The position numbers and the translations under genes were made by a program. Under the pieces are notes generated by a model, which was not told the DNA's origin, ran no database searches, and saw only the letters and a program-made list of their open reading frames with translations. 63,240 nt of DNA. It comes from Desulfobacterales bacterium (GTDB lineage Bacteria > Desulfobacterota > Desulfobacteria > Desulfobacterales > UBA5616). Where the stretch lies: assembly GCA_046483495.1 (NCBI GenBank), contig JAWODC010000060.1:1-63240 (forward strand), given 5' to 3'. Each line of letters begins with the position of its first letter. Within the stretch, counting starts at the first letter, position 1. This document shows, piece after piece, positions 1 through 62,082 of the stretch.

Positions 1-209
1 CCTTCAGGAGGATTTTCACCTGCAGTGGTGAGATTCTCAGAACTTCCTCCTCTCAAACGGTAAGTAGGCCGGGGCTGGAAGAGATAATAATCACTCTCAG
101 CCACCTTTTCATTTAGCTGATACAAAGGGGGACTCCATCCTTTGTGGACAAAGGAATCTGCTTATAGACACCTTTAGCACCTTCCAATGTAGAACTAGTC
201 ATTTCAACT

Positions 210-3200
210 CTATATGCCGCTTTCGCCCTCCATGCGGAGAACGGCCTTGTTGCTGTACACGTTGAAAGTGTTGCCGCCCTCGCCGCCGAAAGCCGTCAGC
301 GCATGGGTGATGCCCTGGCTCAGCCATCCGCGCGTAATGCGCAACAGTTCCATGTCGTCACTGTCAGCGGTAAGATCGATGTTCTGCGTGTCATCCGCTA
401 CGGTGCGGATGTCGTCGGGCCGATCGCCCTCGGGGTAGTCGTATCCGTTCGGGTTGGTGCCGAACACCTGGCCGATCTGGAAAAGATCCCTGCCCAGACC
501 CCCGTCAAGCGTGGTAATCGCACTGTTGTCGTCGACGTAGAACCGGTCGTCGCCGTCTCCCGCGCTCACCATCAGCCGGCCGTTGATCGAGGTGTCATAG
601 TTGATCCGCTGCACCGGCGTGAGGAACTCATTGGAGTCGGCATCATCCGGATCGTATACCGGATTCGGGGTCAGGTAAGCCACGAAATTGCGGCGCAGCA
701 GGAACACGTCATTCGTTCCCGGGTCCGTGCCGCTTTCTTGCGGATGGTTCCAGTCGAATGCATCCGTACCGACCGCGTCCAGGGTGTGCATGCGCAGGGT
801 GTCGCTGCCGTCATTCGGCGCACCGGAATCCTGCACGTTGACGAGATAGGCCGTGCCGCCGGCGCCGATGTTGACCACGTAATGGTCCGTGCCGCCGCAG
901 CCGTCCAGATCGATCGTGTCGAGCACCGCGCCGTCGCTGCCGTCGGTCAGCAGATGGCCGGGACGGTCGTGAGTGCCGGTGATGGACGGCAGGTGGTCGA
1001 GAACGAACCAGTCGGTGCCGCCGGCCGCATCCCCGATGTCTCCCAGCACCCGGGTGTGGCCGCTCAGCGATTCAGGATGCAGATAGAAGGTGTCGTCGTC
1101 GTGCTCACCGGTGATCAGCAGGCTCGTTGTCGAGATCGATCCCAGCAGATCGAATCGTGCTCCCGTGTGGTAGCCGTTTCCGTCGGCATCGACACCCGTG
1201 TTGTCGTCGGCGTCACCATGGTCGATCCGCAGGGTTATGCTGTCCGTGACGGCGGTGGTTCCATCCTCATCCGTGGTAATCGTGGAACCTGCATCGATCA
1301 GCATGTCGTCGCCGGCCAGAAGGGTTACGCTCGTCGCGGCCATGATGTCCGCGTTGTACTCTACAAGCAGGTCTTCGTCCGAATCCGAGCCGTCCAGGGC
1401 CGACACGGTCGTGCCGCCGTCCGGATGCGGCAGCAGCGTCATGGCAGCCGAGTCGATCGCCTGGAGCGTAATATCCGCCGTAGTGGACTCGACATCTTCC
1501 CGCACCCGCATGAAGCCGGTGGTCGTGACGCGAATGGTCTGCTGCGCGCGCAGGCCGTTGATTGCGGTGTTCAGCACGGGGTCGCCGACGAGTCCGATCT
1601 GCCCGACAATCAATCCGTTCCGATCATCCAAGTAGATGCCGCCGGTGCTGCTCTCCGCTTCGAGATAAGCGACGCCGGCCTCCAACGCGTTCGCGTTAAG
1701 ACCGATATTGCCGTAGGCCTGCAGTTGAGCCTTGGACGCGACAATCTCGAGGTGGCTGTCGCCGCTGTCCAGAATGGATCCGGCCGAAGCATCGATGTCG
1801 ACCTGGGTGGTCGTGCGGAGATGGCTCAAAGAAATGTCGCCGGTGGCGTCCATGTCAATGAACCCATCGGTCGCATCGACGTAGGAACCGTCCGCCATGG
1901 TGATCGCCCCACCGCCGGATTTGTCATTGTCGGCACGCACCGTAACCGTGGCGCCGCCCGATTCGGTGTCGATGGAACCGCTTGCGTTAAAGGTGATATC
2001 CCGGTCGGCCAGCAGGGTCACGGTGCCGCCGCCGCTCGTGATGGGCGCATGGACGTGAATGTCGTCCGTCGCATCCAGCAGGACCGGGCCGGCAGCGCTG
2101 TCGATGGCTTCGGACACGGTGATGGAACTGGCCGCCGAAATGTCCACGGTCGTGCCGGCGACAATGCCGACCTGGTCGCTGATTCCGCCGATGATCAGGT
2201 CGCCCGTATTGTCGAGCCAGATTCCGCCGGTGCCCGTATTTGCCTCGAGATTGGATATTTGGGTCTCCAGCCGCTTCAGAGCATCGGCAACCCCATCATC
2301 GGCATTGAGCACCGCGCCGAGTGCATGGATGTCGATATCGGCATCGGTGTCGGCCCCTTGGACATCGTTACAGTAATCGACGATCGCCCCGTCGACGTTA
2401 AGGGTAACGATGCCCTTCTCTGCATTGATCCGGTCGATGAAGGCGTCTCCGTCCACCTGGACGGTAATGTCGCCGTCCGTGGAAGTCATGTTCTCGACAT
2501 ACAGATCCCCGAAACTGTGAATGAACGTGTCGCCGATCGAATAGGAGGTCAGCTCGCCGTCGATGATCCAGATCTCCAGGAAATTGTCCGCCGTGCCGAT
2601 AGTCCCGCTCGCACCGGAATGCAGGTAGACGTTACCGATAATCGGGGTCACGACATTGCTGCTCGGCAGATCCTCGTCATCAAAGATATCCAACAGGGAC
2701 CCGTTCGGCGCCTGGAGGTCGATGTAAGTGTCGGAAGAGACCTTACCAACATACATGTCTCCGTCGAGAACCTTTATTTGAACGATGCCGCCTGCGTCGA
2801 TCTGAGCAATTCTCAGGTCATCGATGGTCTGGGTTTCGCCATAGATCGTGAGGGATCCCCCTACCTGGTTGATGACGATATCCCCTGCCGCCTGGGCACT
2901 CAACCGGCTCGAATCGGAAAGCTGAATCCGCAGCGGATCTGCTTCCGAACCGATGGAGCCCGTTTCGGACAGCAGGATCAGGTCGCCGAAGCCGCCGATC
3001 GCCGCGGTCGAATCGGTGTTGAGGTCGGTGATCGAGCCGTGGGCCTGGAGACGAACATTTCCACCCGCCCTGATCGAGTCGATGTTGAAGCCGCCCATGG
3101 TCTGAAGCGCCATGCCCGCCCCGGAGGCCGCGGAGAAGGCGCCGTAACCCGAGGGATCGGATTCATCGATTGCGTCCACATCGACATCGTCCCAGAGCTG

Positions 3201-6200
3201 CAGCGTGAGGTTTTCCATTTCGAACTTGTTCAGCACCAGGTCGCCGGTCGAAAGGTCCACAGCCCCGTCATCATCCGTTGCATGGTCCGCCCGCTGGCCC
3301 CGCTCGGTGGTGAGCCGTTCCCAGACAGTACCGTTGCTGTAGTCCTGCTGGACCAGGTCCATCGACCGTGCGCTTCCCGTATATCGATACAGGCCATAAC
3401 TGTCGGCGTTCAGCTGTACGAGGACCGTGTCGCCCGAAACGATGGAGACCGTCACAGGCACAGTTGGATCCGATCCGGTGGCGTGGTCCACATCGATCCG
3501 CCGCCAGGATGTGCCTGAGAAGAATGCCGCATCCTGGTCGTCGCTCTGGAACCGGCCGCTGTCCGGATCCCGCAAGTAGGTTTCAGGATCGATATCGGTG
3601 GCTTCCCATTTGTCACTTTGCGCATAATCGACGCCGCTGAGATCGAATAAGGTCGCCTCTCCCACATATCGATAAACGATGTTATCACTCAAGTTTTTGA
3701 CCAGAGTGCCTTTGGTCAGGGTAAAATAGACATCCGATAGGCCGCTTCCGATGTACTCGTAAAGGGCATAACCGATCCCGATGATATCCGCGGCCGTTGC
3801 GATCGACAGAACCTCCTTTTCCGGTGTGGACAGGGCGGCAAAATTGCCGGTCATGTCGATGGACATCATGTCGGACACGTGGCCGATTTCGCCCGTACTG
3901 CCGCCCGCGATGATCGTCACGTTGTTGCCGATGATGTTGGGCGACTCCGTGGCGGACATGGGAATGCGGCTGCCCAGAAATTCCGCGTGAGGGTAAAGAG
4001 TCTTGTAAAGGTCCGGTGAAAGCGGGTACATGAGCGCGTCGAGGGTAAATGTCCCGGCCGTGATCAATTCCTGCACCCTCGGGTCGAGATTTTCGATGTC
4101 AATGCTCTCGCTCGGCCGGAAAAGCTCGAGGAAGGCGTCGTAAATCGACCCGTCCACAGTTTCCAGGTAGACGTCGCCGCTTATGGAGTGAATGGAAGCC
4201 TCGACCTCCACGCTTTCCGGGAACGTCTCCGGTTCGATCAGGTTCAGATCGCCGTCAATCTCGGTGATGTAGATATCCCCTTCCGCCCTGACCGCCAACC
4301 CACCCATGCCGAAGGCCGCGCTGTCGATCTCAATGGGAAGTGCGGCGGTTCCCACGAAACCCCGCTTGCTGTAAATCTCGATCCGGTTCCCCTTGATCAG
4401 GGAATCGGCATCCAAGGCGAACACCCCGTCCGGGGCATGCAGGGTTACGTTGCCGCCGATGGAAATCACCTGGTCGACGATAATGCTGCTGGTCTGGTCT
4501 TCGGAAACCAGGATGACCTCGATGTCCTTGTCGGAGGTGATGTTCAGGCCGGTGGGATTGCCCCCCTGGCCGCCCTGAAGGTTGAAGTAAACCGAACCGC
4601 CGGCCGTCATAGTGGGGTTAGCCCCGAAGATGGCGGACGTCTCGGTCTGGATGATGTCGCCGTCGGCAGTGAGGGTGATTTTCCCTTCGATTTTGGGAGT
4701 GACGCCTAAGTCATGCGGTACGGCCAATTCACCCTGCAGGCGGATGTCCCCTCCGGAAGTAATCGTGATCTCGGGGCTGATCGGGCCCTGGATGAATTCG
4801 ATGTCGACCGGATAGTCGGCCTTGAGGGTGTGGGTGAAGTAATCCTTGATGCCCGTGGTCGTGGTGATGCGGGTGTAGTACGTCTTTTCTCTCATCCAGC
4901 CGCCGCCCCACTCGTCGTGAAACTCATCCACGGTGACATTTTCGAAATCGCTGTAGTACTGATCTTTGGCTGGATCCTGAAAAGTTTTATTAGCAACCTG
5001 AGCATTAAGAGTCAACAGGGTGCCCGAATCCTTAATTTGTTCCCAGGTCGGGTTGTCGCCCGTCGAAGCGGTGGCGTAATCGATGGTCGAGAGCTCTGCC
5101 TCGGCGCCGGACGGTCCGATATAGCGGTAGAAAGCGTTGTCCGGTGTCACACCATCCAACGTGGTGTCGGTCCACTTCACGATGGTACTATCAGGCGTCA
5201 AATCGATGATTTTGTCCGGAACCCGGTAGAATTCCACACTGTATGCCGAATCGGCCGCATACCAGGGAACATTGCCGCTGCTGCTGAGGTCGACGAATTC
5301 GGATTCCAGGAGCGGTGTTTCATCCCGGTCGTAAATATCCATATCGGTCCAGCTGTCATCCGCTGCCAGGGCATCCCAGTCGAATCCAAGCAGGTTGAAG
5401 CTCTTCTGCTCGTAATGGTACACTTCCACATGGGACTTTTCCTGGCCTTCGGTCCAGACGTACTGAAGACCGATGGTAGGGTAGTATGTAATAGTTTCAC
5501 CGAAATGGTAATCATCATAGGCGATCGCCGTGTAGTCGATCCTGGAGATGTCCGACGCCGTCGCCGGCACAAATACACCCGTGTATGTGGTCTCCTCGAT
5601 CTGATCACCCGCCACGCGATACTCGACCTTTACGAGGGCGGCCGTGTTGATGATGATGATCTCCCCCTCCCGGAACGTCGTCACATCGATTCTGCCCAGC
5701 ACCAGGTCGTAGTCGCTCTGGTTGTCGATCGTCACGTCGGTGTAGCCGTTGGCCACCCGAAGCGTGCCGTTGCCGGTGCTGAATATCTGGCCCGCCAGGG
5801 TGATGGAGCCGCCCGTAGGCACAATGTCCTCCACCACGATCGCCTGCTGGGCCGCGTCGTAATAACCGTCCACGGGAATGTTGTGGGCACCGAAACTGAT
5901 GCCGGGCAGCGGATTGCCGTCGTCGTCCAGCAAGCTTGTCGTGTAGGCACCCGGGTTGAAGTCCTCGGAAATATCGAGCGTCACGTGGTCGGTTCCGCTC
6001 TGGACCAGGCCGTTGATGTTGAGATATCGTGCCGTTATATTGATTCGGCCTTGCGCAACGATCGAAGAATAGTCGTTGTTGATCGCATTTTCCAATGCCA
6101 AGGCGGACAGGTTGCCGTCAGGCCCCGGAATTCCATCCGTATCGTTGAAAACCTCATAATCATAGGCACCCGTTATGTTATCGAAGACAAGGTTTCGAAG

Positions 6201-9200
6201 AGCGGTGTAGTCCACGTACTGCCGCGGATCCCGGTTGGTGTGGAGCCAGTCTTCCGTGCTGAGGTTGAAGTCCCCCTGGGCCCGGATCGTGACGTTTTCC
6301 GCCCGGATTTCGCCGGAGACATTGACGCCGCCCTCCAGATTTTCGATGGTCAAATCCCCGTTTTCATTGATGACCCGGCCTAAAATGTATAGATCCTGGG
6401 GCACATCCGGAATATCCAGGCCGCCAAGGTCGTAATCGCTTTCGAGATATGCATCCTGAAGGATCGTGATCTCCTTGACCCGTGTCACCGTGCCGAGGTC
6501 AAAATCCGGGGTGTACGTCTCATAACCGGTCGCGTCGAAATCGATGGTGAAGTAGTCCCCGCTGACCGATTTCACCTCGTAGACGCCGCTTAGCGCATTC
6601 CAGCCGCTCTGGGTGATCCCCTCGAAACGGACCGCATCACCGGCCGCAAAATCGTGGCCGGCCTTGTACACCCGGGTCTGGCCGCTGACCGGGGCCAATC
6701 CGTCGATGCCCATGTCGAGGTTGCTCAAGGACATGTTGTTGAAATAGACATTGCCCGGCGTCAGGACCACGAGCTCGTCGCCGGACACGGCGATGCGCCG
6801 GTTGTCCTTCACCATGGCGTCATTGACGGCCATGAGTAGGGGGGACTTGTTCAGGATATTGATGCCCGCATCGGCCCTGGCGTTCAACTGATCGCCCACC
6901 ATGGCCGCAAAACCGCTCTGCGCCCCGTCGTCGGCCCCGATAAAGACCGAACCCGGTGACGCGTAGACGTCGGGCAGTTCCACAAAAAGCATATCCAGCG
7001 CCTTCTTGACCACCAGTACGCCGTCGATCCATTCGGCCAATCCCTGGTCGACCAGTGTCGCCTCGAGCGCCTCCAACTGAACCTCATAGCGCGCGACCGC
7101 TTCCGGATCGGTGCCGTGGCTGATCATCCACTCGATCACGGTTTGCCGCTGCTCCATCAGCAGGTTGGTCACATTGACGCAGGAGATGGTAGGCGTATCC
7201 AGATTCAGCGGTTTGATGACGTAAAGTTTGCCGTCGAGCTGTGTCTTGAAGTTTTTCGTGACGTCGCTTTCATAAACCGTGTAAGCGTCCTGCTGCTCGG
7301 GGGTGAGTGACGCCCCCAGATCGGTCCACCGGGAGGTGACGGTGTAATCCTCGTTTTCAAGGACGATACTCTCGGAACCGCCGCCGGGAAGTTCGAACTG
7401 GTAGTAATGCCCCGCAATGCCGTTCCCGAACGAGTCCGTCACCAGGTGAATAATGATGCCGTCGGAAACGGTGAGAGGAATTTCACCCGCAGTCAGGTAG
7501 GCATATTCGTATTTGAGCGCCGGATCAAGCCCGAGGAGTTCTTTTTCATGGTGCGTCAACAGCAGGTGCTCGCCCGATGCCAGGCTGTCCAGCCGGCTCT
7601 TGACCGTTCCCAGCGACGTGTCTACGGAAGGCTGATCCGTCCCGTTGAGAGAGATCGGTTTGATATGAACCAGGGACTGATTATTGATACCGGCTTCGAC
7701 AAGGACGTTGTCACCGATGGAAACGGTATTGGTGCTGCTCACGTCGGCCCCGTCGGGCACCTCCATGCCGTAGGGAATCATGGACAGGGAAAGGGCAACC
7801 CCTTCCGTCCGGGCCCTGCCCTCCCCGCCGATTCCTTCCTGGGCCAGCAGGTTTACATCTTCGAGAGACTGGACGCGGGTGGCTCCGGTTATGGTGATGG
7901 TATTCGTCTCGTTGATGTCGGCATCGAGAACCGGTATCGTGATATTGGGCAGCAGCGATGCGGTGACGATTTCCGCATTAGCGATGGTGTAAAGGAAGTT
8001 CGGCTCCGAGAGCGCACTGGCGCTGGCGCGTCCCGCGTAAATGTACACGTCTTCGCCCTTGATCGTCGCATCGGTGATGTCGACCCGGTTTTCGGCATTT
8101 ATTAAGGACGAGGCATCCGCCGCGCCCACACCGGTCAGGCCGCTCACCACCATGAGGTTGGCGCTCGGATACAGGCTCACCGACGAGCGCGTGGTGAGAT
8201 ACACGTCTCCGGACTTGTTCTCCAGGGTCGCCCCGTCCACATCGATGTCGACGAGTGTTTCGGCATCGATGCGGGAAAGACCTGCCGCACCGCCGGCCAG
8301 GCCGGAGACCGCTTCGACCCGAACGCTGTCAACGGCCGTGATGTCGTTGTAGGCCTGAACAATCAGATTACCGCTGCTTCCGCTTACCCCTTCCACGGTA
8401 AGCGTGGTGCCGGCGCCGATAGTAATTTTGGTCTCGAGCGGATTTTCATCGGTCCCGATGTCCGTTCCGCTGGTGAGGATGGTCACGCCCCCGCCGATTG
8501 CAACGGAGCCGGCCCGCAGGTTGCTATCATCCGCCTCCAATTTCTGTTTGGTGAGGCGGTTCACGGCCGTAATGAAAATATTCTCGGCCGTAACTGTTGT
8601 GTTGTTTGTATCGATGTTGGCCTTACCGGTTATCGTGTTTTTCGCGACGGCGCCAGTGCCGGCGAGAAGACCGAGCGTATAGGCGTCCGCCCTGGAATCG
8701 ATATCCTGATTACGGATGGAAGAGAGTTCCAGTGTCTTCACATCGATGATGGAATTCCCCAGCGTCACCAGGGTCGCGTTATCATTCGAAACCCTTGAAT
8801 CAGCACCCGCGCCGGAAAGAACTCCGCCGCTTCCGGCTGCGCTGTCTGCAAACAGGTCGTCATCGCTGTTCGCAGAAATCCTCAGGGCTCCGGCCTCGAT
8901 ATTCGTGTGGTCGCCAACGGCTGATGCGACTTCGTAAATATCGTTGCCCTTGCCCAGGTTCACTTCCGCAATCATGGCGCCAACCGCCAGACCGCCAGCG
9001 CTGACGCCGATGCCTTCGGCAACGCCGGTGGCGTAAAGATTGGAGGCGACCACAATATCCCCGGTCACCTTTATATTTGAATCATTACCGATATACGCCC
9101 TGACTTCCGGCGCCATGTCCACAGTCGCGAAATTGATGCTTGCCGCGCCAATTCCCGCGGCCAGCCCGTAGGCCTCTGAATTGGCATTGATGTGGTGATT

Positions 9201-12200
9201 GGCTGTGACAGACAAGCCGTCCACCGTTCCGGTCTGGCCGAGGTCAACATAATCACCTATGTAAGCCTTGGTTAACCCGTCGACAGTGGACCAGGCCACG
9301 GAGGCGCCGGCTGCAGCGAGTCCGACACTCGCGCCGAGGCTCAGCGCTTCAAGATTTTGAGTTGAATCGGCAGTAATGGAAATCTGTTTGGCTCTAAGTA
9401 TCCTTGCTTTTGCAGAGGTGGATATGCCGGCGACATACGCCTGCACGTCGTTTGAAACCGTGTTGGTGATGACCGAGCCCCCGGCCCCGACAACGCCGCC
9501 GGCCAGGCTGAAGGTCAGGGAATCGATGGCGGTATCGTCCAGTGCCTTCAGATTGATGTTGCCTCCGGCCGACACGGAGGAAGCGCCTCGGATATCGGCG
9601 TGGATCGTGTTCGCGATGGCATTGGTGGATATGGAAGCGTTCGCTGCATAGGTGCCGGCACTGAAACCGGCGGAAAGCGTGGCGATCCTGGAATCCGAAT
9701 CGGCGGTCGCATTCACCTCGGACAAAACGGAGGTGACGGTGGAATCGACAATTTCGGCCTTGATGCTGTTGGCGATCGTGTTGGCGGCAATGGCGGCGCC
9801 CGCCGAAACCCCCGCGGAACCGGCGATGCTTCCGGCAAAGGACACGATATTGGCGCCGGAGTCGACCGTGTTCCCGTCAAGGGAATCGGTCAATTCCTCC
9901 ACCACCGCCAACGGGAGCAGCATGACCGGAACGCTGGAGGGTGCGGTCTCGACGGCGGAGAGGGCGACGCCGCCCCTCGCCCACACCGTGGACCCGGTGA
10001 TCCTGGCGTCCGTGACGTTGCCGATCTCGTTGATCGTCACGGTAGCCTGGCCAGAGAAAAATGTGGATACCGCCACACCCGCGGCGAAGGAACGGACGAC
10101 GTCCGAAGACTCGCTGGAAAGTCCAATACTACCGTACGAGCTGTCTACATCGGATTGGCTGATGGACGTGAGGACGCTGTTGTGGATGTGGTTTTCGGAT
10201 GCGGCAGCTCCCACCGCGCCGCCGCCGGCCGCCGAAAGACCCACGGCAATGGCGTCGATGGTGGATGTGTTGTCGGCCGAAAGGGTGACATTTCCGGTGG
10301 CCTTCACCTTGGCCCGCCGAATCACATCCTCGACCGTTTCGTTGACGATCGACGCGTCGATGATGTTACCTATGTCATTGTAGGCGAAGGACAACTGACC
10401 GGCTCCCATCCCCGAAGCAGCCACCCCGCCGACAAAGCTGAAGATGTCGGCATCGGACAGGGCGGCCAAATCGACGCCGCCCGTGAATGTCTCCACGGTG
10501 GAGCCCGCAATCTGGGCCCGGACCGTGTTGGCGATGCCGTTGTAGCCGATGATGCCGGAGATAGACACTCCACCGGAGCCGGCGATGCTGAGCCCAACAG
10601 AGGATATGGAGGACTGGTCCTCTGCCGAAAGGTCCACCAACCCTCCGGCCATTACGGTGGCGTCGCCCGCGATCCGCGCCTGCACGCTGTTGGTGATGAC
10701 ATTCCCGAAGCCGGTAAAATTCGCCGCGACAATCCCCGAAACGCCTACGCCGGCCGTCAGGGCGATGATTCGCGCATCCGACAGGGACGACATGGTAACA
10801 TCTGCGTCCCATTGAGTGATTTCAAAGTCGGTTATATCCAGATCGGTATCGTCGTAAGTGTCGGATGGCGTCGCTCCCGCCAGGACGGTCGAATTCTCGA
10901 TGCCTGTGGAAACAGTATTGGTCACTACATTTCCCATGAGCCCCACGTTGACCGCCACACCTCCTCCGGACACACTCACCATGACCGCCAGAATGTTGGC
11001 ATCCAGGTCGATGGGGGAATCTTCGAGTGCCCTGTTCAGCTCGTCAGCCGTCAATCCCATGATCTGATGATTCGTCCCGGTGGTCCCGCTCGAGCCGAGA
11101 TCGATGGCAATACCATTTTCCGCATTGTCCTTGGAGGCCGCCAGTTTCACCTTTGTCGGCTCACCATCGACGGCAATGATGTAATAGGTCTCCCCGGATT
11201 CTATGCCGTTAATATCCGTGCCTCCGCCGTTGTCGTATTTAACGGCATCCCCGGTTTTCCACGGGTTTTCACCGACGACTATCGTGTCTGCCGATGTATC
11301 GACTGCGGTGTCCGGGTCCAGGGTTGCACTGTGCAATGCCGGCCCTACCATCCATTCAGGAATGACACTGGGTGCGATATCCTGGGCCGAAAGGTCCACA
11401 TCGCCGTAAGCGTATACTTCGGAATCGAGGATCGTCGAAGTCACCGTGTTGGCCACCGCATTGCCCATGGCGCTCACTTGGACGGCGAATCCGCCGCCCG
11501 AAACCCCCAGGGATAGGGTGCGGATGATGGAGGCGGATTCCGCATCCAGGTCGAGGGATGCATCGGTTTCCAGGGTAGAGCTTTCAATGGCGGTGGTGAT
11601 CGTGTTGGTGATCACGCTGGTGCCCAGACCGACACCCACAGCCCCTGCCCCGGCGGACACGCCGATGGCCAGGGCGTCGATGGTTGAAGTGTCTTCCGCC
11701 GAAATGACGATCGCCCCTTCGGTGTCCAGATTGGAACCGTCGATGACGGCCTCTGTGGTGTTGGTGATCACATTGGCCGTGAGTGAAATGAGTCCCGCGC
11801 CCGCACCCACTGCCAGGCCGCCGCTGAATCCCATAATCTGCGCATCGGACTGAGCCGAAAGCCGCACGCCAAGGCCCGGAATAATCACAGTCGTTCCGTC
11901 ATCTGCCAGGAAATCTTCCTTGCCGGATTTCACCCTGGAGCCGATGATGCGGGCGGCCACGGAATTTGTAATCACGTTTGCACCGATGAGCGCCCCCACG
12001 GCAACCGTCGATCCGGCCACGCTGACCCCCGCGGATCGGATATCCGATTCGTCGCCGGCTTCCAGGTTCACCGATCCGCCGGCCTCCACATCGGAGCCGC
12101 CCTTGATGGCGGCCTCCAACGAGTTGGCAATGGCGTTGCCGAAGCCCGTTGCATTCACCGCCACCGCGCCCGAGCCTGCCACGCCGATGGTGAGGGCCAT

Positions 12201-24827: not shown

Positions 24828-26159
24828 TCAATACGTGCCGACCGCCCGCTGCAAAAAGGCATGGGCCAGGTGATAGTCGTACAACGCCCGGTAATAATTG
24901 ACCCGGGCGCGGGTCAACAGGGTCTGGGCGTCCAGAACTTCAGTAATGGTCGTCATTTGTGCCTTGTAGGATTCTTCGTTTACCCTCAGGTTCTCTTCCC
25001 CCTGTTCAACGGCCTTGCGCGTCACCGGAATGTTCTCCTCGGCCGTTTCGAGGCCGAGCATCGCCTCCTTTACATTGAGGATGATGTTGTCCTGCACGGC
25101 GTTCCGGGTTTTTTCAAGCTCTGTTTTCGTGCTCTTTTGCTCCTGCACGGCATAGTAGGTCTTTCCCCACTCCCAGACGCTCCAGGACGCCACCGCCATG
25201 GCTTCCCACCGGTCGCCGTCATGATACAGGCTGCCGGACACATCCGGTTTGTCGCCTTCTTTGATGAAGCTGTAGTTCATGCTGATTTCAGGATAATACC
25301 CGCTTCTTGCATACCGGATCTGCTGCTCCGACTGTTCTATGCTGTTGTCGATCAGGGCCATTTCGGGGCGGTTGGCAAGGGCCACCTCGATCATTTTCTC
25401 GAACACGACATCGGCGTTCACCCGGACGAGGATATCCTCCACCTCAGCAGGGGCATCCACCGGACGCGAGAGAAGGGTGTTGAATTCCGACCGCGCCAGC
25501 CTGGCATCGTTCACCGCCTGGACCAGGATATTGCGGGCATTGGCCAACTCCAGTTCCGCTTTGAGCAGATCGTTGATCGGTATCATTCCCGCCCGATGGA
25601 AATTTTTGGTGACCTCCACGTTCGACAACAGTGACGCCACTTCCTTTCGGACGACCTCCACGGCTTTATCCACAATCAGGATGCCGAAATAGGCATTTTT
25701 AACCTCAAGCGCCAAATCCAGCCGGGCCAACTCGATTTCCATCTTCGACCTGTCGACTCCCAGCCTTGCGATATCATATGCGCTTAGCAGGGCAAAACCG
25801 GTAAACACAGGCTGCGTGAGGGTCGCCCGCCACTGGTAATTGTCCTTTGAGCTTGTTGGAATTTCCTGCGTCAACCCATAACGGTAGGTCGTCTCATCGT
25901 CGAACCGCGTGTAGGCATAGTCCGTATTGACCCGAAACAACAGATCCGACCGCCTCTGGCTTCGCTCATACCGGGCCTGCACCAGCCGTTCTTTTTGCGC
26001 CCTAAACGACCAGTTCTTCGCAAACGCTTCATGGATGCTGTCTTCCAGGGTAAACACTACTTCATCCTGGGCGTACAGCCGATGCGAAAAAGCCGCTAGT
26101 AGCAGCATCATTGCCCCAATGAAAATCGTAACTCCCGGTGCCACTGTATTTCTTCTCAT
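24828..26159 (-). CDS. TolC-family outer membrane efflux protein
   Basis: 443 aa. Signal-peptide-like N-terminus, two OEP-like halves (LTQPVFTGF; YYPEISM...VWEWG), C-terminal EVLDAQ...L.RAVG pattern. Confidence 0.9.
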   Translation of the reverse strand: MRRNTVAPGVTIFIGAMMLLLAAFSHRLYAQDEVVFTLEDSIHEAFAKNWSFRAQKERLVQARYERSQRRSDLLFRVNTDYAYTRFDDETTYRYGLTQEIPTSSKDNYQWRATLTQPVFTGFALLSAYDIARLGVDRSKMEIELARLDLALEVKNAYFGILIVDKAVEVVRKEVASLLSNVEVTKNFHRAGMIPINDLLKAELELANARNILVQAVNDARLARSEFNTLLSRPVDAPAEVEDILVRVNADVVFEKMIEVALANRPEMALIDNSIEQSEQQIRYARSGYYPEISMNYSFIKEGDKPDVSGSLYHDGDRWEAMAVASWSVWEWGKTYYAVQEQKSTKTELEKTRNAVQDNIILNVKEAMLGLETAEENIPVTRKAVEQGEENLRVNEESYKAQMTTITEVLDAQTLLTRARVNYYRALYDYHLAHAFLQRAVGTY

Positions 26160-26239
26160 TTCATTTCCTCTTCAGGCCGGTTCAGGTCAACCCAATTCAC
26201 CCCGCTGTGATAGAAGGCCATTAAAGCGCCATGTCCCCC

Positions 26240-27073
26240 TTACGACGTCTCGTGAAACTCAACCCTGCACTTCAGCCCCGGTGGGAGTTCGAAGCCGGGG
26301 TTCGGTATCTCCAGGCGGACGCCGAAGGTGCCGCTCGCCGCATCGATGACTTTGTCCACGATCGTTACCTCGGCTTCATAAGCGCCGCCCACCGGCGGTT
26401 CAGGCTTTACGGTGCCGCTCATGCCGACCTGAACCGAACCGTACGCCGAAACAGGCAAAATGACTTCCACGTTCAGCGGATCGATCTGGGCGATTTTGAG
26501 AATCGGTTTGTCTTCAACATATTCCCCTTTTGCCAGGTACCGTTCCATGATCACGCCGGAAATCGGACTGGTGATCGTCTTCCGCTTCACGGCTTCATCG
26601 GCCTGGTGAAATTCCAGTTCATGCAGCCGCTTCTGATCCAGGGCCGCGGCCAGTTCGGTTTCCGCCAGAATTCGCTGGGTATCCACCTCGTCCCACTTCT
26701 GCATAGGCAAAGCGTTTACTTCGTAAAGGTCGCTGATCCGCTTGCTGTTTCGTCGGGCATATTCCAGGGCGGCCTTCTTCGCCTTGATGTTCGATTCCAT
26801 ATCCGCGCGGGCCCGCGCCAGCGCCAGGGTCGCCTTTTCGACACCGGACCGCAGCCGGGCCACAACCTGGCCGGCGGACACAACATTCCCTCGATCCACG
26901 TTCACGGCTTCGAGAACCCCGGGAACCTCACTCCCGAGCTCCACCACCAGGTGAGGTTCGATCAAGCCGTTGTATTCCACTGTTCCCGTAGTCACGGGAA
27001 CCGGTTCGGCACACAAAAGCGGCATCCCTATCCAAAAGGCCAAAACAAATGAGAAAACAATTAGACGTTTCAT
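26240..27073 (-). CDS. Small HlyD/RND-type periplasmic adaptor (membrane fusion protein)
   Basis: 277 aa. Signal peptide, lipoyl-like halves (VDRGNVVSAGQVVARL; ITSPISGVI), coiled-coil hairpin, IDAASGTFGVRLEIPNP...LPPG. Confidence 0.88.
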   Translation of the reverse strand: MKRLIVFSFVLAFWIGMPLLCAEPVPVTTGTVEYNGLIEPHLVVELGSEVPGVLEAVNVDRGNVVSAGQVVARLRSGVEKATLALARARADMESNIKAKKAALEYARRNSKRISDLYEVNALPMQKWDEVDTQRILAETELAAALDQKRLHELEFHQADEAVKRKTITSPISGVIMERYLAKGEYVEDKPILKIAQIDPLNVEVILPVSAYGSVQVGMSGTVKPEPPVGGAYEAEVTIVDKVIDAASGTFGVRLEIPNPGFELPPGLKCRVEFHETS

Positions 27074-27088
27074 ACCTTTCTCCCGGCA

Positions 27089-29083
27089 TCATTCAAACCG
27101 GCCTGAAGAAGCCAGTGAATCACTCAATTGTTCATCTATTTTCAAGAGGTTCCGGCGCATGCGGGAATGCAGCCGCTCCGCACGCCACTGCGCCATCCGG
27201 AACACCATTGTTCCGGCCCATGACGCCGGCCGGAAATTTTCCTTCTCCAGGATCATTCCCGCCAGCCACCGAAACGGTTTTCCGATGAATACACGAATCA
27301 ATTCATCGTCCAGGGAAACCAGTGCCAGGCAGGTGCCGGGGTCCCCCTGCCGGGCGCACCGTCCGAAAAGCTGCCGGTCGATGCGCCGGGATTCGTGCCG
27401 TTCGGTCGCCAGGACAAAGAGTCCGCCCTTTTCGGCAACGCCCGAGGCCAGGCGGATATCGGTGCCCCTTCCCGCCATATTTGTGGCCACGGTGATCCGG
27501 CCAATGCCGCCGGCCATGGCGATGACATCGGCCTCCTCCCGGTCCTGCCGAGCGTTGAGCACGCGGTGCGGCAGGCATTCTCTCTGCAATAGTCCGCTCA
27601 GGTGTTCGGAGGCCTCGACCGACCGGGTGCCGATCAAAACGGGCCGCCCCCGACCCTGCATTTCACGAATCTTCTCGATGACGGCCGTCCATTTCCGCCC
27701 GGTGCTCGAGTAAACGCGGTCCGGGCGGTATTCCCGCCGAGTCGGGAAATTTGTCGACATGGATACCACCCGCAGTCGGTAAACCGACCATAATTCCTGT
27801 GCCACCTCCCGGGCCGTTCCCGTCATCCCCGCAAGGGCCAGATAGCGCCGAAAAAACCGCTGATAGCTGATGCGCGCGCGCGTTTGCTTGGGCACGGTCA
27901 CCTCGCACCCCTCCTTGACCTCTATGAGCTGGTGAAGCCCCATCTCCCAGGACCGGTCCGCCATAATTCGGCCGGTGTATTCGTCGATAATCTGTACTTT
28001 TCCGTCTTTTACCAGGTAATGCCTGTCCGGCTTAAACAGATGGTGAGCGACGATGCTCCGGCGCACCAGCTCTTCACGCTCCTCCTGCCTGATGGGGATC
28101 GGTACGTTCTCCCAGTCGGAAGTGCACGCCGATGATTTGCCGGATTGGGTCAGCGCCACATCCCGCATGTCTTCCAAAAGGATAAAGTCGCGGTTGGGCG
28201 TTAGGGACCCGGCAATCTTCATCGCATGACGGTAAACTTCAGGGTCATACTGGTGATCGGCCTGTGAAGAAATGATCAAGGGTGTACGCGCCTCGTCGAT
28301 TAGAATGCTGTCCGCTTCATCGACAATAGCGTAATGCAGCCCCCGCATGACCAGCTGTTCGATGCGCGAGTTTTCCCCGAAGAGCCGTTCGACCTTCAAA
28401 CGCATCTGCGTGGGCCTGTCCCATAAAATGATTCTGTCCCTCAAGTAGTCAAAGGCGATTTCCTTGTTGGTGCAGTATGTGACATCACAGGCATAGGCAT
28501 TGCGCCGGGCCGCTGCGTCCATCCCGTGAACCACGGTCCCGACGGTAAGACCCATGGTTTCATAAATCGGCCGCATCCAATCGGCATCCCGTTTGGCAAG
28601 GTAATCGTTTACCGTGATAATGTGGACAGGCACCCCGGCCAGGGCCATAACACATGCCGGCAGGGTCGCCACCAGGGTTTTGCCCTCACCGGTTTCCATT
28701 TCCGCCACCATGGCATTGAGCAGAACCCATCCGCCGATCAGCTGGACATCATAATGCGGCATTCCCAAACGGCGATCCGCGACCTCACGGACAAGGGCAA
28801 ACACCCGTGATACGAGTTCACGGGCAAATCCCTCCCGTTTGAGCCGCCCCCCCAGCTCAATGCAATCCGCCGCAATTTGAGCATCGGTCATCGTTCGTAC
28901 GGATTGGCGCAACGCATTGACCGCATCGGGCAGAAACCTGAATGCACCGTGTTTCGGCCGAAAAAATGAGACGAGAAACCCTTTGATGTCCCCCGACAAT
29001 CGGTCGAGTTTGCCCGGCGCCTCTTCCTCTTTTTCCGGATAAATCCCGCCGGTATGATATGGATACGTGAATGGGTTATACAT
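27089..29083 (-). CDS. SecA-like DEAD-motor ATPase, short paralogue (664 aa)
   Basis: EMETGEGKT, HIITVNDYLAKRD, IVDEADSILIDEARTPLIIS, GMTGTA, ATNMAGRGTDI and HESRRIDRQLFGRCARQGDPG are all present. Ends shortly after the start of the helical scaffold. Confidence 0.92.
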   Translation of the reverse strand: MYNPFTYPYHTGGIYPEKEEEAPGKLDRLSGDIKGFLVSFFRPKHGAFRFLPDAVNALRQSVRTMTDAQIAADCIELGGRLKREGFARELVSRVFALVREVADRRLGMPHYDVQLIGGWVLLNAMVAEMETGEGKTLVATLPACVMALAGVPVHIITVNDYLAKRDADWMRPIYETMGLTVGTVVHGMDAAARRNAYACDVTYCTNKEIAFDYLRDRIILWDRPTQMRLKVERLFGENSRIEQLVMRGLHYAIVDEADSILIDEARTPLIISSQADHQYDPEVYRHAMKIAGSLTPNRDFILLEDMRDVALTQSGKSSACTSDWENVPIPIRQEEREELVRRSIVAHHLFKPDRHYLVKDGKVQIIDEYTGRIMADRSWEMGLHQLIEVKEGCEVTVPKQTRARISYQRFFRRYLALAGMTGTAREVAQELWSVYRLRVVSMSTNFPTRREYRPDRVYSSTGRKWTAVIEKIREMQGRGRPVLIGTRSVEASEHLSGLLQRECLPHRVLNARQDREEADVIAMAGGIGRITVATNMAGRGTDIRLASGVAEKGGLFVLATERHESRRIDRQLFGRCARQGDPGTCLALVSLDDELIRVFIGKPFRWLAGMILEKENFRPASWAGTMVFRMAQWRAERLHSRMRRNLLKIDEQLSDSLASSGRFE

Positions 29084-31223
29084 TGAATTTTCTTAAGAAC
29101 AATTGTCTCAATCCACGATACCATCGGTGAATGAGCGGCTCCGACCCATGGTCAAAGCGAACGTATACACGGCCGCCCACATGATAAAGGCTCTCACAAG
29201 CAGGCATCTCTATGTCCAATAAAAAAATCTTCTTAAAAGCCTTGTCGCCCATCATGTCCCTGGGATCGGTCGCGATTTCGCCGCCGCCTTCCTTGCCGAG
29301 GGCCCTCCCGGGGAGTTGATCCGTTGCCGCGGGAATTTCCCGTTTCAGTACGGCCGGCACGGTTCGGCGGATTTCTTCCGAAAATCGAACATCCACGAAA
29401 CGGGTCCGCTGCCTGACCTTATCGACATCGTTTTGTGAGACGACAACCCGGGCGATTCTCCCGGACCCTTCCAGCACATAGCCCAAAAGCTGCCCCCGTC
29501 TGACAAACATCGACGGCATGTCCTGAACCATCGGAACGATGAACACCCCGTCGGCGGCGCTGTAAACCGTCAATTCCGCTACACGCTCCCGGGCGTCTTC
29601 CAGTTTGGCGGAAAGGTGCTCCATCTCCTTCAACGTATTCTCGGCTTTTACCCTGTCGCTGATAATCTCGGTGTCATATATAACCCGTGCTTCGCGAAGT
29701 TGGGCCTCGAGAAGCGTGATTTGGGCGGGCAGGAGCGGATCGATGCATTGAATAAGGGGGGCTCCCTTCCGGACGAACGCACCCGGTTCGGCAAGGATGC
29801 GATCAACGAACCCATTTGTTCCGGCACGGACAAATGATCTCTCCGGCACCCACATGATGCCCTCCGTCAGGGTAGCCAATGGAACGGGAACCAGGCCGAC
29901 GACCGAAAAAAGCAGGAAAACGACGACCGCGACGGCAGCCGTAGCCCGTCCTCGCCGGTGGTCCAGCTGTGGAGACGTAAAAAGAAACCGCAGGCCTTTG
30001 ATGGCCGGCAGTATGAACATACTGAATACGCCCCATATTGCGAAGAGCACCCCGATAAAGAAAAACTTGCCGGCAACGAACAGAATAATGGCCGCATAGA
30101 CCACCATCCGGTACAAAAATGAGGCAATCGTATAGGCAACAAACCAGAAGCGTTCCCCCTTAGACGCCATGGGCTCCTCGACATCCTTGATGCGCAAGAT
30201 GTACCGCTGAATCAGGTAAAAAAAGTAGCGGCTTCCACGCTGGGCGAGATTGGGAATCTCCAGCACATCGGCCAGCATATAATACGCATCATACCGGAGC
30301 AGCGGATTCCCATTGAAAAACAGGGACGAAACGCCCGCAATAAATATGATGTTGTATGTCAAGGATCGCACCGGTCCGGGTTCCATGTTGATCCAGAAAA
30401 AAAGCGCCAGTGCAGCAATGAAGAGCTCAACCGCCATGCCGGCGCCGCCTACGAGGATGCGTTCCCGTCTCTTGTGAAACGCCGATGCAGCAGAGGCATC
30501 CACGTAGGGAATGGGCGTAAACACCAGCATCATGATGCCCATCTCGTGCACTTCTCCGCCGTTTATCTTGACGGTAAACGCATGGGCAAACTCATGGAAT
30601 GTTTTTAGAAACGGAAATGTCAGCCAGAGAATCGCCAGGTTCTTCGGGGATAGAATACGGTCAGCGATATTATGCGTCAGTTCGGACCAGTGGGTCCATG
30701 CCATAAAAATCGCCAGGCACATCATCACCAGCCAGACGAGAGCACCGGCACGACTGAAAATCGGCCTGACGAACGGCTGCAGTCGTTTTAATACGGTTTC
30801 CGGGTCCAGCAGTGAAAACCGCATGAAAAGAGGGCTTCGCAGGTTTTGCTTCAATTTTCCAAACCGCAGTTTTTCAAACCGTTTCAACAGTTCCCGAGTG
30901 TCGGGAACCACGTCGGCCTGAAGCGCATCGATGGCATGGAGCCGGCTGAGCAGGCGAATGAAATCTTCCTGGGTCGGCGCGTCCTCCTCCAGGCGGGAAC
31001 GGGCCGTATCCCAAATTTCCTGCACCGTCCGCTCCCCGTCCATCAGCCCGATGAGCTGATAGGCCACCGGAGTGAATCGCTGAAACCGACCGGAAGTATG
31101 GTCCTGAAGAATGTACCAGAGCTCATTGCGATAATAATGCCGATGGATTTCCATATGGCCGCGAAGCCGGGGCTTCAGACCGGCCACCCGGTACCAGGAA
31201 GGGCTGTACATGGAACTTTTCAT
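29076..31223 (-). CDS. PqqD-like N-domain + M50 (site-2) metallopeptidase + HlyD-like adaptor fusion
   Basis: 715 aa. N-terminal LQDHTSGRFQRF...LMDGERTVQEIW (PqqD-like), multiple TM segments, FHEFAHA (HExxH), NGNPLLRYD, and a C-terminal lipoyl/coiled-coil adaptor. Confidence 0.85.
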   Translation of the reverse strand: MKSSMYSPSWYRVAGLKPRLRGHMEIHRHYYRNELWYILQDHTSGRFQRFTPVAYQLIGLMDGERTVQEIWDTARSRLEEDAPTQEDFIRLLSRLHAIDALQADVVPDTRELLKRFEKLRFGKLKQNLRSPLFMRFSLLDPETVLKRLQPFVRPIFSRAGALVWLVMMCLAIFMAWTHWSELTHNIADRILSPKNLAILWLTFPFLKTFHEFAHAFTVKINGGEVHEMGIMMLVFTPIPYVDASAASAFHKRRERILVGGAGMAVELFIAALALFFWINMEPGPVRSLTYNIIFIAGVSSLFFNGNPLLRYDAYYMLADVLEIPNLAQRGSRYFFYLIQRYILRIKDVEEPMASKGERFWFVAYTIASFLYRMVVYAAIILFVAGKFFFIGVLFAIWGVFSMFILPAIKGLRFLFTSPQLDHRRGRATAAVAVVVFLLFSVVGLVPVPLATLTEGIMWVPERSFVRAGTNGFVDRILAEPGAFVRKGAPLIQCIDPLLPAQITLLEAQLREARVIYDTEIISDRVKAENTLKEMEHLSAKLEDARERVAELTVYSAADGVFIVPMVQDMPSMFVRRGQLLGYVLEGSGRIARVVVSQNDVDKVRQRTRFVDVRFSEEIRRTVPAVLKREIPAATDQLPGRALGKEGGGEIATDPRDMMGDKAFKKIFLLDIEMPACESLYHVGGRVYVRFDHGSEPLIHRWYRGLRQLFLRKFNV

Positions 31224-31283
31224 AACGCGCGCGCTTCTCCAGGACCTGTTTGGTGTCCTATTACGGGCGTGCCGTCTTTCGGT

Positions 31284-33164
31284 TTACGGTATCCAGCGCC
31301 AGATTTGAAGCCGCAGCCAATCCGCAGCTCGATGCGTCCATATCCAAATCAACTTGCGCCGATCGACAGTGATCTTGCCGATGCCCTCCATTCCCGGGCG
31401 CAGGCGGGCCGATGCCGTTTCAATTCGGCCCTCCACCCGAAAAAAGTTTCGGCCTTCCTCGGCGGTTGTCACCGGAGTGATCTTGCTGATGGTAAACGGG
31501 AAGGACTTTCCCGGTATGGAAGAAAAAATGAGTTCGCTCTTCTGCCCCACCGCGATTTTTGATATGTCGCGTTCGTCCACCTCGATAATGACACGATAGG
31601 CATCCAGGGGCGCCAACTCAAACAAAACGTCACCCCGTTCAACCGGGGCGCCGAGGGATTGTGTCAGGTCCCCGCTCATCACAACGGCATCGAACGGCGC
31701 CCGGAGCTGCGTGCGGGAAAGCTGCTCATCGATAAGGGCGATCTGGGCTTCGGCCTGCTCCATTTTCGCCTTCGTGATCTGTATCCTGGAGCGCTCGTGA
31801 TTGGCCATGGCCTCGTTGAACTGGTTTTCCAGCTGATTTCGTTCAGTCAGCCACTTGAACCGTTCCAATTTGAGGTCCCGGTCATCCAGAAGGCATATAA
31901 GGTCTCCTTCACCCACGGTGTCGCCGGCACGAACAGACGCCTCTTTGACATATCCGTCAAATGGAGCCGCCACGGCGCGTTTTATACGGCCTTCGATCAT
32001 GCCGGTCGCCGTTATCCGATAGTCGGTGCTGTACAATGAAAAAAACAATACGAGTACCATCAGACCGGCGGCAATCAGTTTTCGAAGCGGATAGCCGGGT
32101 CCCAAAAAACGTTTCAGTTGAACAGCGGCGGCATCTATCGCCTTCGAGCCGATCCAACGTTCCTCCATCCGTTTGGCATTCAGAATCGCTCCGACAATTC
32201 CGGCGGCGGTGTCGCACAGCTCCACTTCGGCCTGACCGAACGGGTTTTTCGCAGGACGCTCCAGAAGAAGCCCTCCGTAACAGCGGCCCTCAGCCTGCAA
32301 CGGAATGGTCAATATCGTTTCCGACCCGTGCTTTCGTGCAAGTTCCTCATTGGTGCGGGTAACCACCCCCGTCTCGGCGTTGTCGGCGGGAAGCTTCACT
32401 ATGGCTTTCTGATCGACCGCCTCATCCATGGCAAGGCCGATGGCCCGCATCAGGTTCATCTGCTTTGAAAAGTCGGCACTGTGTGACAGTACGCTGACCT
32501 GAATTCTGTTCTTCTTGATAAACCCGAGACTGACGCGGTCGCATTTCAGGAGGATGGAGAGCTTGGTGACAAAGGACATGGCGGCTGTATAGAAGCGTCC
32601 GTTTTCGACGCCGCTGACGATCAGATCGAGCAGCTTTTCAAGCCGGTCATGGGATTCTTTTGTACGGGCGGCGTCCGTCCGGCGAATCAGCACTTCCAGC
32701 CATGCGGCACCCCAGTGGAGCTGCCGCATGGCGGATTGCGCTTCGAAACGACTCTCCTGTTCAACCTCCAGAACGACGACCCCGTGAATTTTTTCCGACA
32801 CCAGTATCGGGTAGGCGATATGCCGCGTACCCGGTGATGCACCGTCGACAAGAAACCCCCGGCGCTCCCGAACAGCCTTTTCCGCGGTTCCCGTTAGATG
32901 AGTCATGCCGAGTTTTGCGTCCGGCCATACCGCCACCGGGGCATAGGGCCCTTGATCCGGTTCGCCCATTAACACCATGGCACACCGAATGCCTTCCACC
33001 ATGCGGCACTGCAGCGGCAGCCAGCTTTGGCAAAATGCTTTCGGGCTGGACGCTTCGGCAAACCGGCGCCAGAAAGGGCGATCCGGATCGATATCGCGGG
33101 GGTCCGCTCCCGTTCGCTTTCCCCCGGCAGCTCCGAGATCCAGATCTGCCCGGTCTTTTTCCAT
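31284..33164 (-). CDS. GAF-domain-containing HlyD-family adaptor
   Basis: 626 aa. GAF-like N-terminal region (ILTIPL...YGGLLLER), one TM helix, then AVAAPFDGYV...VRAGDTVGEGD, coiled coil, LRAPFDAVV and LRPGMEG. Confidence 0.85.
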   Translation of the reverse strand: MEKDRADLDLGAAGGKRTGADPRDIDPDRPFWRRFAEASSPKAFCQSWLPLQCRMVEGIRCAMVLMGEPDQGPYAPVAVWPDAKLGMTHLTGTAEKAVRERRGFLVDGASPGTRHIAYPILVSEKIHGVVVLEVEQESRFEAQSAMRQLHWGAAWLEVLIRRTDAARTKESHDRLEKLLDLIVSGVENGRFYTAAMSFVTKLSILLKCDRVSLGFIKKNRIQVSVLSHSADFSKQMNLMRAIGLAMDEAVDQKAIVKLPADNAETGVVTRTNEELARKHGSETILTIPLQAEGRCYGGLLLERPAKNPFGQAEVELCDTAAGIVGAILNAKRMEERWIGSKAIDAAAVQLKRFLGPGYPLRKLIAAGLMVLVLFFSLYSTDYRITATGMIEGRIKRAVAAPFDGYVKEASVRAGDTVGEGDLICLLDDRDLKLERFKWLTERNQLENQFNEAMANHERSRIQITKAKMEQAEAQIALIDEQLSRTQLRAPFDAVVMSGDLTQSLGAPVERGDVLFELAPLDAYRVIIEVDERDISKIAVGQKSELIFSSIPGKSFPFTISKITPVTTAEEGRNFFRVEGRIETASARLRPGMEGIGKITVDRRKLIWIWTHRAADWLRLQIWRWIP

Positions 33165-33186
33165 TTATGGAAATGTCCCTAAAGTG

Positions 33187-33525
33187 TTATTGAACGGATG
33201 TCGATGGAGGAGCCTGGGGTGTACCGATATCCAGCTTCCCGAACTGCTGCTCATAGTTCTGAACGATATTGTTCAGCAGGACCGACAGGCGTTTTGCCGC
33301 AAAAGGGCTTAAGACGATTCGGTCCGTCAACTGGACCTTCACTTCTTTCTGGCCCGCATGCCATGCCTGGTTCATGCCGAAAAGAAGTACGATTTCCTCC
33401 CGGCCCGCGGCCACGTTGGAAACATTGGCGTAAACACTGCGCATGTTCGAATCATCCCATACAATCCTCTGCTGACCTGTTTGAGCTTCTGGTGTTTCAG
33501 CATTCTTTTTTTGTTCCGCCGGCAT
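33187..33525 (-). CDS. DUF3467-family small protein
   Basis: 112 aa from the ATG at 33525 (AAGGAGG RBS). Motif WDDSNMRSVYAN...EEIVLLFG...RIVLSPFAAKRL...YEQQFG. Confidence 0.8.
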   Translation of the reverse strand: MPAEQKKNAETPEAQTGQQRIVWDDSNMRSVYANVSNVAAGREEIVLLFGMNQAWHAGQKEVKVQLTDRIVLSPFAAKRLSVLLNNIVQNYEQQFGKLDIGTPQAPPSTSVQ

Positions 33526-61872: not shown

Positions 61873-62068
61873 GAAAGCGTTGTCCTCTCATTTCTTCAAG
61901 ATCACCATCCCACTTCAACTTACCTTTTAGTTTTAAGATTTCTTTCCTTTTTCTTCGGCTGATCAGATCCCGCAATGCGAAATCAACAAGCTTTGTTTTT
62001 GTTTTGAGGCCTGTATACCTCATCCCCTCTTTAATTAGTTTGTCATCAATAATAATGTTAGTTCGCAT
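61859..62068 (-). CDS. vapB: VapB-family antitoxin
   Basis: MRTNIIIDDKLI...KTKLVDFAL...W.GDL..MR. Overlaps vapC; GGAGG RBS. Confidence 0.9.
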   Translation of the reverse strand: MRTNIIIDDKLIKEGMRYTGLKTKTKLVDFALRDLISRRKRKEILKLKGKLKWDGDLEEMRGQRFHDTD

Positions 62069-62082
62069 AGTTATACCTCCAA

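Follow-up and report, generated by a model that had tools for sequence, protein, structure and literature searches.

The 63,240-nucleotide contig JAWODC010000060.1 of a Desulfobacterales bacterium (assembly GCA_046483495.1), analyzed here in its entirety and hereafter called the window (G000:C40), carries a six-gene module upstream of a giant gene whose product bears an N-terminal LEPR-XLL motif. On balance we lean towards the reading that this module exports the giant protein in one step without an ATP-binding cassette (ABC) pump: an RRE-like domain would bind the leader of the giant, an intramembrane protease would trim it, membrane domains would serve as the point of entry, three periplasmic adaptors would lead to TolC, and a short SecA would act as an ATP-driven feeder. 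We infer each of these steps from what was observed, namely gene content, conservation, linkage to giants, intact protease motifs and the lack of a recurring ABC pump. The features concerned, all on the minus strand, are as follows.

33187..33525, minus strand: DUF3467 protein, 112 aa (PF11950, E 1e-22; start picked by ribosome-binding site)
31284..33164, minus strand: GAF-like cytoplasmic domain, one membrane helix (360–378) and periplasmic adaptor, 626 aa (PF01590, E 2e-9; HlyD_3, E 6e-18; TIGR01730 over cut-off)
29076..31223, minus strand: fusion of PqqD/RRE-like domain, site-2 (M50) protease and adaptor, 715 aa; constant core (NF041824, motif conservation)
27089..29083, minus strand: short SecA paralogue, 664 aa (SecA_DEAD, PP_bind and P-loop domains; no SecA_SW)
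26240..27073, minus strand: small periplasmic adaptor, 277 aa (TIGR01730 over cut-off; N-terminal hydrophobic segment 4–22)
24828..26159, minus strand: TolC-family outer-membrane channel, 443 aa (PF02321, E 2e-55)
23745..23864, minus strand: basic N-terminus and LEPR leader (IEPLEPRLLLSAD), predicted export tag (NF012209, 27 bits, cut-off 17)
210..23864, minus strand: likely cargo, the N-terminal 7,884 aa of a giant LEPR-XLL repeat protein whose gene is cut at its 3′ end (NF012209, NF012206 repeats, PF00353)

As the original prediction stated, the six module genes are co-oriented and tightly spaced (22, 60, −8, 15 and 80 bp between consecutive genes from DUF3467 to TolC). The giant RTX protein of ~7,900 aa that it placed beside them is a real open reading frame (ORF) and needed correction in several respects: its most likely start, with a strong ribosome-binding site, is 23864 (7,884 aa), its stop is likely false, we reject 7,897 aa as its true length, and 13 of the 14 RTX-type repeats of the window fall in its first 670 residues. 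The LEPR motif occupies residues 31–37, and the protein has no N-terminal hydrophobic segment. The giant begins ~960 bp after tolC, across an AT-richer gap, and given that distance may be a separate transcript; a promoter/terminator scan of the gap returned 4 sites vs 1.8 ± 1.2 in shuffles, which is not above chance. The adaptors of the window score as RND_mfp and fall under the type_I_hlyD cut-off.

Spread of the module and its link to giant proteins

Occurrence was profiled in 301 genomes of the class and 301 genomes of a second phylum. The M50-adaptor fusion was found in 68 of the former (41 of them with the near clade, defined as M50 matches below 1e-100, a threshold set after the scores had been seen) and in 88 of the latter; a single-sequence scan of genome contigs gave no match, and among protein clusters at 50% identity it is matched by 3,962 representatives at E ≤ 1e-30. 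For analysis of gene neighborhoods we took 40 of 46 near-clade and 20 of 42 divergent places in the class, favoring long contigs, together with 20 hand-picked divergent-type loci of the second phylum and a cross-phylum set made up of the best 80 of at least 598 loci from an alignment scan, 39 of which were well flanked (both flanks ≥8 kb). The module genes co-occur across phyla, in keeping with the original prediction. The GAF-adaptor was present in all 39 well-flanked cross-phylum loci, TolC was linked in 21/40 own-class vs 7/80 cross-phylum loci, and DUF3467 was found in 30 of the 80 cross-phylum loci; we regard the DUF3467 protein as an optional partner, perhaps with a chaperone role.

The LEPR family (NF012209) was matched in 37 of the 301 class genomes and type I HlyD in 84; the 37 LEPR genomes comprised 30 with the near clade, 33 with any M50-adaptor and 16 with type I HlyD (odds ratios of 99, 54 and 2.2, which overstate the association because related genomes are not independent), so that LEPR-XLL giants track the module much better than type I HlyD. 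Among the 58 genomes with type I HlyD and no M50, LEPR was seen in one. Four LEPR genomes lacked M50; two of these matches come from frames 23 and 61 aa long, and G260 has short-SecA fragments. Where LEPR and the near-clade M50 occurred in the same genome, they lay within 80 kb of each other in 18 of 30 cases and on separate contigs in the other 12. The one-contig genome G047 encodes the module and a 12,757-aa LEPR frame, with no type I ABC protein over cut-off and no type I HlyD. Across phyla, 32 of the 39 well-flanked loci had, within 10 kb, either a LEPR leader or a frame 1,500 aa or longer on one strand or the other, a figure that comes with no background rate for long frames.

No HlyB-type ABC exporter was found in the window, and a motif scan of 160 loci flagged ORFs at eight (six of 227–279 aa, a single ORF of 556 aa, and an 810-aa ORF resembling a Lon-type ATPase), none recurring, which bears out the original prediction on this point. 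No RND pump recurred in clustering of the first 60 loci, although no profile scan for RND pumps was made, and no SecY family recurred at the loci clustered. Signaling genes and SapC were considered as constant parts of the module and rejected on account of their patchy occurrence.

As a separate observation, two genomes (G261 and G266) each carry three separate modules, every one close to its own LEPR giant.

The M50 fusion and the LEPR leader

Because the Pfam matches of the fusion to M50 and PqqD are under cut-off (E 3e-4 and 7e-4), we make the M50 call on motif conservation. H210, E211, H214 and D312 are invariant across 35 aligned members, the HExxH motif and a distal NPxxxxD ligand lie in a multi-pass membrane domain as in site-2 proteases, and the protease motifs are kept in 160/160 loci (140/140 plus the 20/20 divergent-type loci of the second phylum). 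The fusion also matches MJ0392 (E 5e-4); a search of solved structures gave no match for either the N-terminal region or the full-length fusion. Such intact motifs argue for catalysis, not for a pore alone.

The N-terminus of the fusion appears PqqD/RRE-like. Its best NCBIfam family is the daptide RRE-protease NF041824 (E 9.5e-42 over residues 19–395, 143.5 bits vs a cut-off of 300), and residues 10–125 match PqqD clusters at 0.96 (Atlas). PF05402 is under cut-off in the window fusion and is matched by 16 of the 35 aligned members at E ≤ 0.05, while a profile of the N-terminal region matches 16/20 divergent proteins at E < 0.02 vs 0/20 reversed controls. Judged by these profile matches, the domain points to leader recognition rather than to a passive portal, and the M50 fusion likely reads and cuts the LEPR leader. 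The original prediction had cast the M50 domain as the inner-membrane portal; it missed the intact protease site and what the PqqD domain suggests about leader recognition, and we retain a role in membrane entry as part of the proposed route.

The leader itself is conserved. All 19 near-clade leaders carry hydrophobic-E-x-[LMV]-E, with x-R and LLSAD-like residues after it, whereas 39 of 2,170 background frames carry the hydrophobic-E-x-[LMV]-E motif; E-x-L-E-x-R and S are invariant or almost so in 19/19. The 19/19 count is partly circular, since 11 of the 19 fed the search profile and NF012209 is itself based on this motif. Divergent leaders (0/9 with the near-type motif) read LExRxxLD[AG]A, often ahead of DUF4347. 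Two SecA-less near-clade loci (L152 and L153) retain a near-type leader, and leader type therefore tracks M50, not SecA. The core of the LEPR leader resembles the daptide leader motif, and by the daptide register we would predict a cut just after the Arg of LEPR.

A short SecA linked to one M50 clade

The short SecA retains both nucleotide-binding domains and the preprotein-binding domain, with Walker A/B and motif VI kept, and is ~45% identical to the housekeeping SecA of the same genome. Aligned with that genome's own canonical SecA (on contig C7), it stops ~30–60 residues into the scaffold helix and lacks the scaffold, wing and two-helix-finger region and the C-tail, ~200 C-terminal residues in all. 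In canonical SecA the two-helix finger is the part that pushes the chain.

The original prediction, like the model of Kamneva, Poudel and Ward (2015; PMC4452313), made this protein the essential motor, replacing the ABC ATPase and pushing the chain through an M50 pore into TolC. Its kept ATPase motifs speak for such a role, as does its position: SecA adjoins M50 in 39/40 own-class near-clade loci (one copy is split into two frames, and the single exception sits at a contig end) and, among the 61 cross-phylum loci that extend 3 kb or more downstream, in 56, and the M50 and short SecA genes overlap by 8 bp in the window. In addition, the available passages of a 2026 preprint (bioRxiv 10.64898/2026.03.19.712371) report a recently acquired secA, possibly of the short type, that is co-expressed with LEPRxLL giants of Chlorobium.

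Against an essential motor stand the missing two-helix finger and wing region and the distribution of the gene. SecA was found at 0/20 divergent (sister-clade) own-class loci, which kept both other adaptors in 20/20, TolC in 12 and a giant or leader in 14, and at 0/20 divergent-type loci of the second phylum, which had giants at 16 and TolC at 12; the sister clade overall thus has SecA at 0/40 loci and an adjoining giant or leader at 30/40. Genomes with the divergent clade only (n = 27) mostly encode one canonical-length SecA (25 genomes), with one cut match and one extra short copy making up the rest. Eight near-clade loci also lack SecA; two of these genomes have a short SecA elsewhere and in six none was seen, several of the assemblies being incomplete. 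In a FastTree tree of 139 M50 proteins, whose root is not known, a 100% branch has every SecA-linked locus to one side of it, and at least six changes (6–7) are needed on the tree to explain the SecA-less label. We rejected SecA as a universal motor on the strength of the 0/40 sister-clade loci and the 25/27 divergent-only genomes, and the earlier claim that SecA supplies the push is weakened by these same counts and by the missing finger; an essential motor role now seems unlikely to us. Since sister systems do without it, the short SecA is likely a clade-specific helper and not the defining motor.

Sulfotransferase genes (a TPR-sulfotransferase and a sulfotransferase) adjoin two SecA-less loci (L081 and L087), where the giants may be modified.

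Proposed mechanism and alternative explanations

In the export route that we favor, the cytoplasmic PqqD/RRE-like domain of the M50 fusion would bind the N-terminal LEPR leader, and the site-2 protease would then make its cut after the LEPR arginine. With their membrane portions, the M50 and GAF fusions would form the entry at the inner membrane, and the three adaptors would make up a mixed tunnel to TolC. The short SecA of the near clade would serve as an ATP-driven clamp that holds and feeds the unfolded chain, as a helper; candidates for the basic driving force are folding of the Ca-binding repeats outside the cell, the proton-motive force and the housekeeping SecA.

Several observations weigh against this route. 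Site-2 proteases are not known to let large proteins through, and no energy source is evident at the SecA-less loci. The linkage is uneven as well: 11 of 41 near-clade genomes have no LEPR match (10 of these 11 have at least 130 contigs), the giant lies inside the 20-kb cut in only 12 of 23 well-flanked own-class loci, TolC is linked in just 3/39 well-flanked cross-phylum loci, and the match between leader type and M50 clade is a single contrast between two clades. In daptides, according to the available portion of the report, the Leu and Met of the leader motif are required for recognition by another RRE of the pathway, the assay having used the RRE of MpaB rather than that of the protease (bioRxiv 10.1101/2023.03.08.531785). 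Finally, a canonical type I system is encoded elsewhere in the genome, on another contig (G000:C37:34257-45609), with an LssB/LapB-type ABC protein and a HlyD over cut-off. We take its neighbors to be TolC, LapG and LapD, in a Lap-like layout, and a repeat-protein gene next to it at the contig end is a candidate for its own cargo.

That second system opens an alternative in which the module only trims, anchors or releases a giant exported by the type I machinery or by another route, a reading that also draws on the RTX-type repeats of the giant and on the intact protease site. We consider it less probable still than an essential SecA motor: 16 genomes have LEPR and the module with no type I HlyD match (five candidates scored per genome), one-contig G047 among them, the C37 system has its candidate cargo adjoining, and three adaptors, often with TolC, are hard to square with trimming alone. 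Least probable is a sensing or small-substrate device (a GAF sensor with regulated intramembrane proteolysis, or short-peptide export) that travels with adhesin islands; the GAF domain, the response-regulator, kinase and EAL genes flanking several loci and the regulatory role suggested for the GAF protein in the available text of Kamneva et al. (PMC4452313) fit it, whereas no small precursor or sigma/anti-sigma family recurs among ORFs of at least 80 aa (the range scanned) and what does recur beside the module is the giant, with a leader type that tracks the M50 clade.

Going one step beyond the export route, we tentatively entertain a separate class of Gram-negative secretion, somewhat short of an even chance in our estimate, in which the RRE-site-2-protease-adaptor, a relative of the machinery that processes peptide-antibiotic leaders, would be both receptor and gate: it would read and cut the LEPR tag and pass proteins of 10,000–36,000 residues through a mixed tunnel of adaptors and then TolC, without help from an ABC or RND pump, the SecA booster having been added later in one clade. 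LEPR-XLL proteins are among the largest bacterial ORFs, with frames of up to 23,093 aa among the class genomes and 36,806 aa in the accessible part of the 2026 preprint. Should the reading be true, the route would be common, given the fusion's frequency in both genome sets, and if a short N-terminal tag suffices for pump-less TolC export, an orphan motif would gain a function and TolC export a new way of being energized or gated. Under the leader-reading view the cut should fall at one defined site. The gene set itself was published in 2015 and is the less surprising for it.

The cut 3′ end of the giant gene

1..214, no strand assigned: foreign tail supplying the false stop (210–212); 44% GC, found nowhere else in the assembly

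The stop of the giant at 210 is likely not its native end, and the foreign tail is likely the end of a multi-copy element or a chimeric contig end. At all but one position, the 120 bases of the giant next to the tail match the beginning of a 3,889-aa ORF on contig C72 (G000:C72:67015-55349, running off the contig end; Calx-beta and RTX domains), which likely carries 3,889 more residues of the protein; upstream of those 120 bases the two sequences diverge (76% identity over 312 columns in all). Because the assembly has a single LEPR N-terminus and no other giant frame, the simplest reading is probably one gene of at least 11,700 aa, the alternative being interruption by a mobile element. In the C72 portion the last repeat lies ~1,190 aa ahead of the C-terminus, and the true end is outside the window. 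Bases 128–213 of the window (86 bp) recur in three public runs, where they reach a depth of up to 631 between different flanking sequences, and are possibly the end of a mobile element. Among the listed contigs of public runs X1–X4, none joins window-specific giant sequence to the C72 continuation; one X2 contig does read through, yet at 272 it has the letter of C72 and so shows only that the C72 form exists.

Two further features of C72 are of note. Its likely C-terminal domain (G000:C72:55349-55700) contains a metzincin-like HExxH (Peptidase_M10, E 0.009) with the third His replaced, and from this motif may be a protease or self-processing domain. Directly after this likely C-terminal half of the giant lies a gene for a DUF3467 domain with ~270 further residues lacking a Pfam match (G000:C72:54106-55263; L171:7007-8164, minus strand); long DUF3467 fusions of 399–681 aa likewise come after giants at three other loci (L033, L034 and L043).

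Neighboring genes

Five genes upstream of the module encode a family-5 binding protein, two permeases and two oligo_HPY ATPases, a composition by which we recognize a peptide importer, as originally proposed, and which rules the ABC system out as an exporter. Farther along, housekeeping genes occupy 40528–62441 (rpsI/rplM, ruvCAB, tol-pal, succinate dehydrogenase, recR and dnaX), with a PIN-domain gene at 61477–61872 and two ORFs without a Pfam match at 43257–43994 and 62004–62441.

At other loci the flanks vary by subclade. In one (L056, L057, L060, L061 and L063) genes for a hybrid histidine kinase and a response-regulator/GGDEF/EAL protein lie ahead of the module, hinting at c-di-GMP control; in another (L052, L053, L058, L064 and L070) a ~1,000-aa PKD-domain protein and a ~200-aa protein without a Pfam match are encoded ahead of TolC.

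Comparison with known systems

The original prediction called the system undescribed, which does not hold: the available text of Kamneva, Poudel and Ward (2015; PMC4452313) describes the locus and proposes SecA_DEAD as the ATPase and M50 as the pore replacing an ABC transporter. The common features given there are a short SecA without the SW domain, M50-HlyD, a small HlyD, GAF-HlyD, sometimes OEP, and no ABC. The present locus agrees, with a SecA_DEAD protein lacking SecA_SW besides canonical SecA, adjacent clusters 1–3 and no ABC (OEP being optional); SapC, their cluster 4, is absent from the window. Their cluster 5, a hypothetical protein, may correspond to DUF3467, judging by its position next to the GAF gene, on the far side, in their S2 Table. 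In the portion of that paper available to us, no cargo, PqqD/RRE domain, leader motif or SecA-less sister clade is named, and ‘RTX’, ‘adhesin’ and ‘DUF3467’ have 0 matches, while its Fig. 3 draws proteins of more than 1,000 aa, among which giants may appear. Literature searches, with most subscription journals outside their coverage, returned no paper tying the module to giants, and we found no published account of the cargo link, the putative leader-reading protease or the SecA-less sister clade. We conclude that the locus is a member of the one described in 2015; it is not type I secretion (no ABC) and not a Sec translocase (truncated motor).

Comparable proteins are the LEPRxLL giants Cag_663 and Cag_665 of Chlorobium chlorochromatii, which the accessible passages of the 2026 preprint (bioRxiv 10.64898/2026.03.19.712371) report to leave the cell, assigning export, C-terminus first, to SapC, TolC and a HlyD. 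Like the present giant they have an N-terminal LEPRxLL and TolC nearby, and they also have SapC nearby; the M50 fusion goes unmentioned in these passages, for which ‘M50’ was not a searched term.

In its protease the module most resembles daptide MpaP (NF041824), in which, as apparently in the M50 fusion, an RRE is fused N-terminally to a site-2 protease. Daptide precursors carry ELExMEAP, according to the part of the report at hand (bioRxiv 10.1101/2023.03.08.531785), and its core ELExME resembles the hydrophobic-E-x-L-E of LEPR leaders. Unlike MpaP, the M50 fusion carries a periplasmic adaptor, and its likely substrate is a 10,000-aa protein rather than a short peptide. Another M50 protease, EpeP, is thought both to cleave and to export a peptide, as stated in the available text of PMC10885120.

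The short SecA has its motor and preprotein-binding domains in common with SecA and accessory SecA2 (SecA2-only and SecA2/SecY2); unlike in the SecA2 systems, its partners are adaptors and TolC, with no recurring SecY. With type I secretion (HlyB-HlyD-TolC, or LapBCE for giant adhesins) the module shares TolC, adaptors and giant repeat cargo lacking a hydrophobic segment at its N-terminus, and it differs in having no ABC exporter, three different adaptors, a zinc intramembrane protease instead of a C39 peptidase, and cargo with a conserved N-terminal tag, apparently in place of a C-terminal signal. A leader peptidase fused to a transporter, as in peptidase-containing ABC transporters, is a functional parallel, and the module likely operates much as a type I system does, its tag being N-terminal and cleaved.

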